This document shows, in pieces, positions 5,056 to 10,064 of a stretch of 64,000 nucleotides of DNA (position 1 is its first letter; each line of letters opens with the position of its first letter). The stretch spans positions 23,432-87,431 of the forward strand of contig CAJBVW010000342.1 in NCBI GenBank assembly GCA_903959175.1. The letters are read 5' to 3'. The notes beneath the pieces are model-generated. The model worked only from the letters and a program-made list of their open reading frames with translations. It did not search any database and was not told the DNA's origin. The translations under genes were made by a program, and so were the position numbers. The DNA is from an uncultured Pseudomonadota bacterium (lineage in GTDB: Bacteria; Myxococcota_A; UBA796; SXON01).

Positions 5056-6117
5056 ATGCTTGCCGCCGCACTTGCCCTCTTCGTCGCCCTCTCCGGGATG
5101 TTCCTTCCGACCGCCGCAGCGGCGGACGGGCCCACCGGCATCCTGAAGGTTCGCAGCAACGTGGAGGGCGCCGAGGTCTGGCTGGACGGCGCCCTGCTCG
5201 GCGCGACCCCTCTCACGAAGTACCTCGCCGTCGGCGCGCACCAGATCCGCGTCGTTGCCGACCGCTACGACCCCTTCGTGCGCCGCGTGGAGATCGCCGA
5301 AGACAAGACCCTCGAGGTACAGGCCTCGCTCACCCCCGGCACCGGCACCATCGAGTTCACCGGCCCGCCCGGGGCCCGCCTCCTGCTCGACGGCACGGAT
5401 CGAGGCCCGCTCCCCATCCGCCTCCCCGGCCCGAACCCCGGCACGCACGCGTGGCGGGTCGAGGCCCCGAAGTTCGAGCCCGCGGAGGGCCGCATCGAGT
5501 TCGTGGGCGGTAGGAACTACCTCGTGGACGTGAAGCTCCCCTCCTCCCGCGGCGTCTTCGTGGTCGAGTCCACGCCGGCCGGCGCCACCGTCTCCCTCGA
5601 CGGCAAGAACGTCGGCGCCACCCCGCTCCGGCTCGAGAACATCGAACCCGGGCGCCACGTCGTCCTCGTCACCCACCCCGACCGCGCCGCCATCCTCCGC
5701 GTGGTCGACACGACGGACGGCACCCGCGGCGAGGTCAAGGCCACGCTCCCCACGACTGGCGGCGTCCTCGACATCACGACGGGCAGCACCGACGCGCAGG
5801 TGCTCCTCGACGGCGCGCCCGTCGGCGCCGGCGCCCACGTCACGGTCGGGCCCTTCGAGAAGGGCAAGATGAAAGTACAGGTCCTCGTAGGCGACCGCAA
5901 GGTCACCGACACCGTCAGCGTCCCGGCGCGCGGCACCGTCGCCCTCCGCGTCGCGGGGGACTCGCTCCTCGAGCGCAAGCCGCTCGTCCAACGCTGGGGC
6001 TTCTGGGCCATCGTCGGCGGGGCCGCCGTCGCGGGCGGCGCCACCACCGCGGCCGTCGTCGTCGCCACCGCGCCCGAGCCCCCTCCCACCGGTGACACCG
6101 TGGTGGTCCTCCCATGA
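5056..6117 (+). CDS. PEGA domain-containing secreted/membrane-anchored protein
   Basis: Internal ATG 5056 gives the signal peptide MLAAALALFVALSGMFLPTAAAA. Repeated PEGA-type patterns (EGAEVWLDGALLGATPL, PGARLLLDGTDRGPLP, AGATVSLDGKNVGATPL, DAQVLLDGAPVG). C-terminal TM helix WGFWAIVGGAAVAGGA. The stop overlaps the next start (ATGA at 6114-6117). Confidence 0.85.
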   Translation: MLAAALALFVALSGMFLPTAAAADGPTGILKVRSNVEGAEVWLDGALLGATPLTKYLAVGAHQIRVVADRYDPFVRRVEIAEDKTLEVQASLTPGTGTIEFTGPPGARLLLDGTDRGPLPIRLPGPNPGTHAWRVEAPKFEPAEGRIEFVGGRNYLVDVKLPSSRGVFVVESTPAGATVSLDGKNVGATPLRLENIEPGRHVVLVTHPDRAAILRVVDTTDGTRGEVKATLPTTGGVLDITTGSTDAQVLLDGAPVGAGAHVTVGPFEKGKMKVQVLVGDRKVTDTVSVPARGTVALRVAGDSLLERKPLVQRWGFWAIVGGAAVAGGATTAAVVVATAPEPPPTGDTVVVLP

Positions 6118-9100: not shown

Positions 9101-10064
9101 CGCCCTCTCCTGGGCCGAGGCCGGGGTGTCCCTCCCCGCCTGCGCCGACGGCGTCGACTCGGATCTGGACGGCCTGACCGACCTCGACGACCCCGGCTGC
9201 GCCGACGCGGACGACGACGTCGAGCAGGATCCGATCGCCGAATGTGCGGACGGCGTCGACACCGACCTCGACGGCTGGATCGACGGCGACGACCCCGACT
9301 GCATCGACGCCACCGCCGAGGCCGGCGCCACCGGTACCGCCGCGTGCAACGACGGCGACGACGACGATGGCGACGGCCTGACCGACGCCGACGACCCCGA
9401 CTGCCTCGACGCCTGGGACAACCGCGAGGCCACCGCCGCGGACGCCGGTCTCGACTGCTCAGACGGCCTGGACGGTGACCTCGACGGCTGGACCGACGAC
9501 GCCGACCCCGACTGCGCCTGGCGCGGCGCCGAGGTCGGCTACGAGAGCTTCCCGTGCAACGACGGCGAGGACTCCGACAGCGACACCCTCACCGACGCCG
9601 ACGACCCCGGCTGCGCCAGCGCGCTCGACGTGGACGAGACCCACACCCCCGAATGCGCCGACGGCCTCGACAACGACGCCGACGGCTGGGACGACGTGCT
9701 CGACGCCGCGTGCCCCGACGCCGACGCGCTCTTCGAGGACGACGGGGCCGCCGGCGGCGACTGCAACAACGGCGTGGACGACGACGCCGACGGCCTCGCC
9801 GACGCCGCCGACTGGGGCTGCGTGAGCGCGTCCGACAGCAGCGAGGTCGACCCCGCTACCGCGTGCAACGACGGCCTCGACAACGACGGCGACGGCTGGT
9901 CGGACGTGGCCGACCCCGACTGCGCGACCCCGGTCACCACCACCGGCGAGGTCGGCTACAGCGACATCCAGTGCAACGACGGCGTCGACAACGACACCAT
10001 CCAGGGCACGGACGGCGACGACCCGTCGTGCGGGTCGGCGCGGGACAACTCCGAGTACCGGTGA
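6114..10064 (+). CDS. Giant Asp-rich lipoprotein with 35 Cys-bracketed MopE/thrombospondin-type-3-like putative metal(Ca)-binding modules
   Basis: Lipobox signal MTRAWLLLALLGC. Residues 149-1306 contain 35 modules of exactly 20 residues, C-x18-C, with consensus C-x-D-G-x-D-N-D-G-D-G-x-x-D-x-x-D-P-D-C (counted by hand in the ORF-track translation). GAC/GGC codon periodicity fits the + frame. Confidence 0.85.
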   Translation: MTRAWLLLALLGCTGSSDDRTAVVVDIDATDVAGAADAWWLILDPTAPFIKRDGTELTEADDSRIGDWVVDDAALELRVSVPVSDDGVPDSIELQPGGNDPAFAVLAYGYLGADRTVTTGSVGPLAFELGEVVAVQLTAALLETPIRPCTDLVDNDEDGWRDADDPDCTAGTEELGTGTGACNDGADNDGDGLADARDPDCTDALDDDEIEPCVDGIDNDGDGWSDADDPDCYDLGDELGVGTTECNDGVDNDGDRAPDSDDRECDSAWDNRESALGCEDGDDNDDDGWLDEADPDCLSGDEEVGVSDWLCNNGEDDDGDGRVDNDDSSCADALDDSESNACEDGGDNDGDGWTDLDDPSCRSSSDDSEGTGFEGRGACSNGLDDDGDGRVDAADTECTDADDDFEASDCEDSSDNDGDGWADADDPDCADGGGTEDSYGTAVCNDGEDQDGDGLYDSEDPDCATASDTDESNGCSDGLDDDGDGWADADDPDCSGGREELGFGTGECNDGLDNDGDLALDAVDADCLTAAGTVEAAECDNGDDDDGDGWFDADDPDCASGAESGPGATECNNGADDDLDGLSDSDDPDCASASDDFEDDAACGNDLDDDGDGWIDLLDPNCASSSDASEDPATSAYPCNNGTDDDGDGLSDADDPGCSEAMDTDETDPITRCNDLVDNDGDEWFDAEDPDCATGTSELGVGTGACNDGVDNDSDGDEDGRDADCADAYDTFEGAAADGCEDGDDGDGDGWRDAADPDCASGSSERGYGTGACNDGEDDDSDGTTDAEDPGCASASDTDETDPSGTCYDDADDDGDGWHDADDPDCLTGDDELGFSDIPGCNDGLDDDGDLAIDAADDGCVDAWDTVEDAAADVCANGEDDDADGWRDVDDIDCATDGDELDFGTRACNDGADGDGDGLVDADDPDCAVSWDDDESGTGDDCANGADDDGDGWSDDEDPDCALFGDEVGYGRAACNDGDDDDTDGLLDSDDPDCADALSWAEAGVSLPACADGVDSDLDGLTDLDDPGCADADDDVEQDPIAECADGVDTDLDGWIDGDDPDCIDATAEAGATGTAACNDGDDDDGDGLTDADDPDCLDAWDNREATAADAGLDCSDGLDGDLDGWTDDADPDCAWRGAEVGYESFPCNDGEDSDSDTLTDADDPGCASALDVDETHTPECADGLDNDADGWDDVLDAACPDADALFEDDGAAGGDCNNGVDDDADGLADAADWGCVSASDSSEVDPATACNDGLDNDGDGWSDVADPDCATPVTTTGEVGYSDIQCNDGVDNDTIQGTDGDDPSCGSARDNSEYR
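6558..10031 (+). repeat. Coding tandem-repeat region (35 imperfect copies of a 60-nt module plus variable linkers)
   Basis: From the first module Cys codon (TGC 6558) to the last module Cys codon (TGC 10029-10031). Units such as tgcaacgacggc...gacaacgacggcgacggc...gaccccgactgc recur throughout. Confidence 0.9.

Follow-up and report, generated by a model that had tools for sequence, protein, structure and literature searches.

A 35-module acidic lipoprotein encoded beside a PEGA-domain protein is built from repeats related to the teneurin C-rich domain

What kind of protein carries aspartate at 27.7% of its positions and 70 cysteines set in pairs at one unvarying distance, and what might a bacterium do with it? 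The question is raised by a gene in a 64,000-nucleotide stretch of DNA from an uncultured bacterium (GenBank assembly GCA_903959175.1, contig CAJBVW010000342.1, positions 23,432 to 87,431 of the forward strand), which we call the window. The gene encodes an acidic lipoprotein made of 35 small modules, and its start overlaps the stop of a gene for a PEGA-domain protein. Sequence comparisons indicate that the modules are homologous to the core of the C-rich domain of teneurins. Based on this relation, we favor, with slightly more confidence than doubt, a reading in which the product is an exported, lipid-anchored, extended string of beads, rigidified by Ca2+ and disulfides, that acts structurally together with its PEGA partner.

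Gene and protein architecture

The gene and its parts, in window coordinates, are the following.

6114..10064, + strand: acidic repeat lipoprotein gene, ATG start, stop codon included, 1316 amino acids (aa), from the open reading frame (ORF) list and its translation
6114..6152, + strand: signal peptide MTRAWLLLALLG and lipobox Cys13 (LLGC), read directly from the sequence
6153..6557, + strand: N-terminal nonrepeat domain (N-domain; aa 14-148, 135 aa), predicted all-beta, kept in orthologs
6558..10031, + strand: array of 35 acidic C-x18-C modules (aa 149-1306), forming an approximately 67-aa two-module super-repeat of W-type and N-type modules

A preliminary description of this DNA had counted 35 modules, all C-x18-C, in a 1316-aa lipoprotein, and a scripted count returns the same figures: 71 cysteines, comprising Cys13 and 35 consecutive pairs, with none left free. 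Asp and Glu together make up 33% of the residues, which gives the 133-kDa protein a net charge of about -410 and an isoelectric point of 4.05; His and Met occur twice each. In a window of 73% G+C, the coding frame has a G+C content of 0.95 at third and 0.49 at second codon positions, the profile expected of a real gene. The signal peptide is short, with 12 aa ahead of Cys13, and no start farther upstream is possible, since each listed ORF begins at the first start codon that follows a stop. The segment fits the lipobox pattern [LVI][ASTVIL][GAS]C and so has, at the sequence level, what a substrate of Lgt and LspA should have. Since a signal peptide and lipobox are combined here with 70 strictly paired cysteines and no free one, we infer export to an oxidizing compartment and an N-terminal lipid anchor.

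In which membrane would that anchor sit? Lipoprotein sorting in Myxococcus xanthus follows the residues behind the lipidated cysteine, with Lys at +2 specifying the inner membrane and Ala at +7 the matrix (PMC3222651). The mature N terminus, CTGSSDD, matches neither rule, which weakly suggests, by analogy with a distant organism, outer membrane targeting by default. A literature search on PEGA proteins, lipoproteins, and Myxococcus turned up only such general sorting rules. The N-domain that follows the anchor has only 2 relatives among 5.8 billion proteins searched, and a Pfam scan at E<=10 gave nothing useful for it. An AlphaFold2 (AF2) model from three sequences has nine strands at low confidence (predicted local distance difference test [pLDDT] score, 50.7), and a Foldseek search with it returned nothing significant, the matches to cohesin, pilin, and S-layer-like beta-sandwiches all lying at E>0.03 and not being trustworthy.

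The array itself is far more regular. All 35 cysteine pairs are spaced exactly C-x18-C, and the linkers between them run from 11 to 17 aa. The consensus is CNDGxDxDGDGxxDADDPDC, in which C1, D6, D8, D14, D17, and C20 never vary (35/35 modules) and D10 varies once (34/35). Trp stands at position 12 in 17 modules (W-type), the other 18 are non-W and mostly of a CNDG type (N-type), and the two kinds alternate, with a single break at modules 26-27, where two non-W modules stand in succession. The linkers alternate with them: those after W-type modules read xxGxEELGxGTxx, with Glu at Cys20+6, and those after N-type modules read xDAxDDxExxx, with Glu at Cys20+8 in 18/18. As both modules and linkers alternate, the repeating unit is a two-module super-repeat of about 67 aa, as had been proposed earlier, and Tandem Repeats Finder periods of 102, 201, and 405 nucleotides (nt) agree with it. 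The break makes the total odd; the module concerned, number 27 (9141-9200, aa 1010-1029), is found at the same position in five orthologs. At the DNA level, the copies are only 60-76% identical and contain no long near-identical repeats, so collapse or expansion of the array during assembly is no concern.

What does a stretch of such modules look like? A four-module fragment (aa 871-1003) was modeled with AF2, which models no ions, from 59 in-register paralogous and homologous rows. The prediction has almost no helix or strand, a pLDDT score of 90.1, and a predicted template modeling score of 0.57. In this model, the beads are confident and their mutual orientation is uncertain, as would be expected of Ca2+-dependent loop modules on flexible joints.

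Relation to the teneurin C-rich domain

The closest structures are found in an animal protein. When a six-module fragment was compared by phmmer with all PDB sequences, only teneurins were returned, the best being chain 7plp_A of Teneurin-4 (49 residues; E=1.3e-4). A profile of all 35 modules found teneurins 4, 2, and 3 (E=1.6e-4) and one insignificant nonteneurin match (E=5.7), and no thrombospondin or MopE chain among PDB entries. By hhalign, the module profile aligned with eight teneurin cores, six from Table 1 of Tucker et al. and two from the PDB alignments, at 97.3% probability and E=2.7e-11 over 22 gapless columns.

The relation is informative because the teneurin domain has a known structure. 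Meijer et al. (EMBO J, 2022) solved the human Teneurin-4 C-rich domain (7PLP, residues 834-871) at 1.5 Å and found three Ca2+ ions, each octahedral, with calcium stabilizing the protein (PMC9058538). The ligands are E835, D840, D843, N844, D845, D847, D851, D854, and D856, with coordination completed by the carbonyls of A837, K842, and L849 and by two waters; Ca I and II are coordinated like, and superpose on, thrombospondin type-3 sites, Ca III resembles the site of LDL-receptor A modules, and the disulfides are C838-C857, C852-C863, and C858-C869 (PMC9058538). If C838 is set as module position 1, C857 becomes Cys20 and the acidic ligands inside this bracket fall at module positions 3, 6, 7, 8, 10, 14, 17, and 19. 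Among the 256 modules of the window protein and its six orthologs (see below), these positions are occupied as follows.

Positions 6, 8, 14, and 17: Asp in 256/256
Position 10: Asp in 249/256
Position 3: Asp or Asn in 256/256
Position 7: Asp or Asn in 215/256
Position 19: Asp in 152/256, partly conserved

The acidic ligands within the teneurin bracket are therefore represented in the modules, that at position 19 in part only. Shared as well are the gapless 20-residue core C-x-D-x-x-D-N-D-G-D-G-L-x-D-x-x-D-P-D-C, the Cys1-Cys20 bracket (equivalent to C838-C857), and a loop-only fold without regular secondary structure. The differences are equally clear. Teneurins have a single copy with six cysteines, three disulfides (1-3, 2-5, and 4-6), and a conotoxin-like C-terminal extension, whereas the window protein is a bacterial lipoprotein with 35 tandem copies and one predicted disulfide in each. 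Compared with the teneurin consensus ExxCx(D/N)xxDx(D/E)xDxxxDCxxx(D/E)CCxxxxCxxxxxC (PMC3278476), the modules have Ala in place of Cys at position 15, lack Cys at 21, 26, and 32, do not conserve the Glu at -3, and hold only the first of the three cysteine pairs.

The likeness to a Ca2+ loop of the form DxDxDGxxDxxD, which the preliminary description had noted, gains support from this homology and from the thrombospondin-like Ca I and II sites; the bare motif can also be read directly in the modules. The resemblance it had drawn to MopE-type and thrombospondin type-3 repeats pointed in the right direction, but formal membership does not follow. Pfam has no useful match for either the whole protein or the four-module fragment at E<=10, PF11617 (Cu-binding_MopE) included, PF02412 (TSP_3) is likewise unmatched at E<=10, and no thrombospondin chain appears in the PDB profile search. 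Type-3 repeats, as seen in the TSP-1 structure 1UX6, resemble the modules in the motif, in loops that lack secondary structure and are stapled by disulfides, and in tandem Ca2+ ions that form a "wire" (for the window protein, the Ca2+ is a prediction); they differ in Cys pattern and in repeat length. With the MopE motif, the modules share the core C-x-D-G-x-D-N-D-(C/G)-D-G-x-x-D; that motif differs in an internal Cys (DNDCDG) and in its spacing. The negative result for PF11617 is meaningful, given that a neighboring gene at 19085-21031 (- strand) does match it (E=2.9e-25, three stretches). This neighbor, a 648-aa true MopE-type protein 9 kb from the repeat gene, has no NF033662 match.

A catalogued repeat family and a possible origin

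The preliminary description had missed the precise relative of the module, which is the teneurin C-rich/NF033662 repeat. NCBIfam already lists it as NF033662, "acidic double-disulfide repeat-containing protein," and the window protein aligns to that model in 35 stretches with 443.2 bits (cutoff, 41 bits) and E=2.2e-136. The entry carries no function, and a literature search under its name found no paper. It appears to describe four cysteines, or two disulfides, per repeat of about 32 aa, and here the window modules part from it, with two cysteines per module in 256/256. Where does the profile expect its cysteines? The four-Cys repeats of one family member, P0015 (C-x13-C-x4-C-x5-C), align through the last model column (32) at about 21 bits per repeat, and the 26-residue Ten4 core by itself reaches 37 bits. 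A single window module scores 29.6 bits, to which the change A15C adds 3.5 bits and from which C1A plus C20A takes 9.8. These scores point to Cys at module positions 1, 15, 20, and 26. The window modules have the same acidic core and outer cysteine pair but only Cys1 and Cys20, and they match model columns 3-28, short of the last Cys column; they are therefore a single-disulfide variant of NF033662. Such variants are common, many family matches being lipoproteins of about 950 aa with 11-17 C-x18-C modules.

The family is large. A four-module profile retrieved 10,833 clusters at E<=1e-3, and 1,014 at E<=1e-30, from 1.84 billion representatives clustered at 50% identity. Members occur fused to PKD, IPT/TIG, lamin-tail (LTD), beta-helix, and FG-GAP-type domains. 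In one locus (L010; JAUHXC010000019.1), two members of 2164 aa (P0004) and 2271 aa (P0003) lie in tandem with overlapping stop and start; modules of C-x18-C, C-x16-C, and C-x19-C spacing occur together in them, a mixture suggesting that the module family also comprises a larger architecture of another kind.

Could the animal domain have come from such a repeat? Tucker et al. (2012) described the teneurin Cys-rich core as similar to a diatom glucosidase, a Volvox gametolysin, and the MopE Pfam motif, and suggested that the domain came from a diatom or an alga; bacterial arrays are not mentioned (PMC3278476). The bacterial four-Cys repeats share the teneurin cysteines at 1, 15, 20, and 26, with counterparts of C852 and C863 among them. 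We speculate, tentatively and in a form that probably claims too much, that the teneurin C-rich domain is one captured copy of this abundant prokaryotic module and that, in bacteria, the single-disulfide form was amplified into arrays of fixed architecture that pair with an inner-membrane PEGA protein and serve as Ca2+-gated envelope rulers or tethers holding about 100 Ca2+ ions. If this were true, the part of the teneurin ectodomain that reaches from the C-rich domain up to and including the YD shell would descend from bacteria, without a partial diatom or algal source.

Acidic repeats stapled by Ca2+ are familiar, and no new principle is involved here. What is particular to the window protein is a single-disulfide, 35-copy, PEGA-coupled form of a catalogued family. 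The wider interest lies in a testable structural hypothesis for some 10,800 uncharacterized clusters, namely, that the module is a Ca2+ clamp like those of the teneurin C-rich domain and of thrombospondin type-3 repeats; a template at 1.5 Å is available. Through the module, a prokaryotic repeat would also be connected with teneurin, a synaptic adhesion protein of animals, in a domain that is highly conserved and unexplained, and this has a bearing on how teneurins arose by horizontal transfer. A minimal Ca2+-binding unit of 20 residues and one disulfide could, in addition, serve protein engineering.

Orthologs and selection

Is this layout peculiar to one contig? With the PEGA protein as query against one genome per GTDB species, six syntenic loci (L001 to L006) were found, all on contigs of metagenome-assembled genomes (MAGs) with about 70-75% G+C. 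One contig is labeled Myxococcota; two are labeled Enterobacteriaceae or Klebsiella, which their G+C contradicts. These two, L002 (CAYWGD010000057.1) and L005 (CAMAXZ010000027.1), have 74-75% G+C and Myxococcota-like genes, and their deposition as "uncultured Enterobacteriaceae" and "Klebsiella pneumoniae" MAGs looks like mislabeling or bin contamination.

At all six loci, the gene after the PEGA gene encodes a lipoprotein with a signal peptide, a lipobox (LLGC, LAAC, LFAC, LGAC, or LVGC), the same N-domain, and an acidic array. The products in L001 to L005 have 1309-1319 aa and exactly 71 cysteines, that is, 35 modules each; they align collinearly with the window protein at 59-76% identity, at nearly every position their linkers have matching lengths, and module 27, the irregular one, is retained. 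L006 is the most distant (its PEGA protein is 43% identical), with 93 cysteines and 46 modules. Its repeat gene (3474-8594) encodes 1707 aa with 11 modules more than the others, and a run of additional W-type modules is seen toward the C-terminal half. In the seven proteins together, 256/256 modules are C-x18-C with exactly two cysteines each, which upholds the earlier suggestion of selection on module geometry. The preliminary description had also allowed that the array might be an artifact or lack orthologs, and both are excluded by 35 modules in five orthologs and 46 in one.

For L001 to L004, modules compared on the diagonal share an identity of about 0.80, versus 0.60 off it, so positional orthology is clear. 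Nei-Gojobori dN/dS ratios (nonsynonymous to synonymous substitution rates) are 0.28-0.40 for modules, 0.49-0.82 for linkers, and 0.40-0.80 for the N-domain. As a control, the PEGA gene gives 0.25-0.33 for L001 to L004 and 0.74 for L005, the most diverged of these and near saturation. The underlying dS values of 0.36-0.57 are probably compressed by extreme codon bias. These ratios indicate purifying selection on the modules, while the lengths of the linkers stay kept by position.

The PEGA partner and the gene neighborhood

The genes around the array, with the overlap that joins it to its neighbor, are listed here.

494-2695, + strand: SelB (selenocysteine elongation factor), upstream of the kinase and PEGA genes
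2158..4944, + strand: Ser/Thr kinase with a dCache_1 sensor (Pkinase and dCache_1, from Pfam), a neighbor in the window only
4954..6117, + strand: PEGA-domain protein gene, three PEGA domains (Pfam PF08308, E=3e-44), true start probably downstream of 4954
6114..6117, + strand: ATGA start/stop overlap of the PEGA and repeat genes, a sign of translational coupling
10146..11573, - strand: convergent SPFH/Band-7 gene (Pfam PF13421, E=5e-77), start approximate, with a C-terminal GYF_2 match

The overlap of the repeat gene's start with the PEGA stop, remarked on in the preliminary description, is real, and it recurs as ATGA, GTGA, or TTGA in 6/6 orthologous loci. At its N terminus, the PEGA protein has a signal-like segment; at its C terminus, a hydrophobic helix precedes a conserved PEPPPTGDTVV tail. 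These features suggest a membrane-anchored, periplasm-facing partner. The pairing extends to a distant relative, P0001 (L007), a protein of 2209 aa with 33 modules and a lamin-tail domain, whose gene adjoins a PEGA gene across a 9-nt gap in the order SelB-PEGA-repeat and whose N-terminal part shows a weak similarity to the window N-domain (E=0.003). Beside the family members P0002, P0003/P0004, P0006, and P0019, a PEGA neighbor is absent.

Does the kinase belong to this unit? The preliminary description had placed the repeat gene downstream of a Cache-sensor kinase, which is true in the window but is not kept in the orthologous loci. Synteny by tblastn puts the kinase about 5-7 kb from the PEGA gene in L002 to L004, and in L005 and L006, no kinase intervenes between the PEGA gene and SelB, its immediate upstream neighbor. 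As SelB directly precedes the PEGA gene in L005, L006, and L007, SelB-PEGA-repeat is an old gene order. The kinase, with 5-7 kb more in L002 to L004, was inserted into it, and no functional link is evident. The conserved unit is thus the PEGA gene and the repeat lipoprotein gene, without the kinase, and the idea of regulation by the kinase was rejected on the ground that its synteny is not kept across loci.

On the other side, the convergent SPFH gene makes the repeat gene the last in its operon; a terminator and promoter scan 3' of the repeat gene found none. A + strand ORF at 10119-11510 (463 aa) was at first taken as the next gene. It is Arg-rich, has the wrong codon-position G+C, and is a shadow frame, and its apparent tblastn conservation in orthologous loci reflects the minus-strand SPFH gene.

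A proposed mechanism and its alternatives

In total, these observations are consistent with a mechanism in which the body of the lipoprotein would consist of 35 small loops without secondary structure, each closed by a Cys1-Cys20 disulfide. By homology with teneurin, each loop would wrap two Ca2+ ions in thrombospondin type-3-like sites, with Asp or Asn at module positions 3, 6, 7, 8, 10, 14, and 17 and backbone carbonyls as ligands. A third ion would probably be held where Asp19 is present, in about 60% of modules, which would bring the sum to some 70-105 ions per molecule. In the absence of Ca2+, a chain of this charge would be expanded and disordered; with Ca2+ and disulfides, it would become a row of rigid beads and hence a semirigid extended filament. 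RTX beta-roll repeats behave comparably, being exported, disordered without Ca2+, and rigid once extracellular Ca2+ binds. They are a functional analog only, built on a GGxGxDxUx nonapeptide and a beta-roll fold and exported by a type I secretion system, with neither disulfides nor a lipid anchor. We further speculate that the lipoprotein is made in fixed proportion with the PEGA protein and most likely binds it, and that the pair forms a Ca2+-dependent structural element of the envelope, be it a tether, a spacer, or a surface fiber, in a Myxococcota-like bacterium. For the envelope biology of such bacteria, the pair would offer a concrete genetic target.

Several points weigh against this picture. 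The missing two teneurin disulfides and the unconserved Glu at -3 make the third Ca2+ site uncertain. The constant count of 35 may reflect modest divergence (dS 0.36-0.57) together with repeats that recombine poorly, and the 46 modules of L006 show that length is not fixed over larger distances. With the copies themselves diverged, the constancy that could have been offered as proof of a length ruler was therefore downgraded to weak evidence. Binding of the PEGA protein, finally, is a speculative step taken from gene adjacency.

Is the Ca2+ perhaps itself the purpose? The protein might serve as a high-capacity buffer or store of divalent cations in the periplasm or at the surface, or as a polyanion that nucleates mineral, with Ca2+, Mg2+, or lanthanides as cargo, and we regard this as doubtful, though it is the strongest of the alternatives. 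Its extreme charge density speaks for it, as do dozens of predicted Ca2+ sites with ligands that are all oxygen, and a module number that varies among distant relatives (35, 46, and 33 in P0001) would fit a capacity trait. The preliminary description had likewise imagined dozens of cations chelated on the cell surface; its number proves conservative next to our estimate, but the surface is not established, export and lipid anchoring being what is indicated. A bulk chelator, however, needs no strict C-x18-C spacing, disulfide clamps, kept linker lengths, dedicated N-domain, or coupled PEGA partner, and it is for these features that we prefer a structural role to bulk chelation. The precedents run the same way, as Ca2+ is structural in teneurin and thrombospondin (PMC9058538).

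Alternatively, could the string be sticky? A Ca2+-dependent adhesin or ligand-binding fiber, in which the exposed Trp of every second module binds polysaccharide, matrix, or the surfaces of prey cells, would account for a feature that is unusual in a purely structural loop, since Trp at position 12 (125/256 modules) could form a binding face. The domains fused to other family members are typical of surface proteins, teneurin itself is an adhesion molecule, and many bacterial adhesins are Ca2+ dependent. Pfam scans, on the other hand, reveal no recognizable binding domain in the repeat lipoprotein, its surface exposure is unproven, and in teneurin, adhesion is not located in the C-rich domain, whose part is that of a structural connector (PMC9058538). 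We consider an adhesin unlikely.

Unlikelier by far is a protein for copper or another transition metal, of the MopE kind. The argument for it is the core C-x-D-G-x-D-N-D-x-D-G, which resembles Cu-binding_MopE and with which Tucker et al. aligned the teneurin core (PMC3278476). The copper option entertained in the preliminary description falls for want of ligands: with 2 His, 2 Met, all module cysteines paired, and only oxygen ligands on offer, hard cations are to be expected and not copper, and PF11617 goes unmatched although the neighboring gene matches it. In CorA/MopE*, moreover, the Cu site lies outside the region of the MopE motif. Two reports describe the characterized site as two His and a kynurenine in a beta-rich fold (PMC3423442; PMC3912023), and the solved homolog of our modules, the teneurin C-rich domain, binds Ca2+ (PMC9058538).

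That the array is an assembly artifact or noncoding low-complexity DNA, as a GAC-rich sequence and the habit of tandem repeats to collapse or expand in short-read assemblies might suggest, is effectively refuted by the diverged DNA copies, by five independent MAG assemblies with the same 35-module, 71-Cys layout and a more distant sixth with 46 modules, by the codon-position G+C, by purifying selection, and by an NF033662 match far beyond chance.

Other observations in the window

Beyond the SPFH gene, a LarC-type nickel-insertion gene lies at 14423-15739 on the - strand (PF01969, E=3e-124). It overlaps the 5' third of a + strand ORF at 14537-19069 (1510 aa) whose PDZ and peptidase S41 domains begin at about aa 810, so the real start of that gene must lie well downstream. 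Farther along, between about 44000 and 50000, G+C falls from about 73% to 62-64%, and this may be a compositionally distinct segment. Large TPR-repeat proteins are encoded at 46633-49845 and 49855-51381, followed by an FHA-domain protein at 52115-53971.

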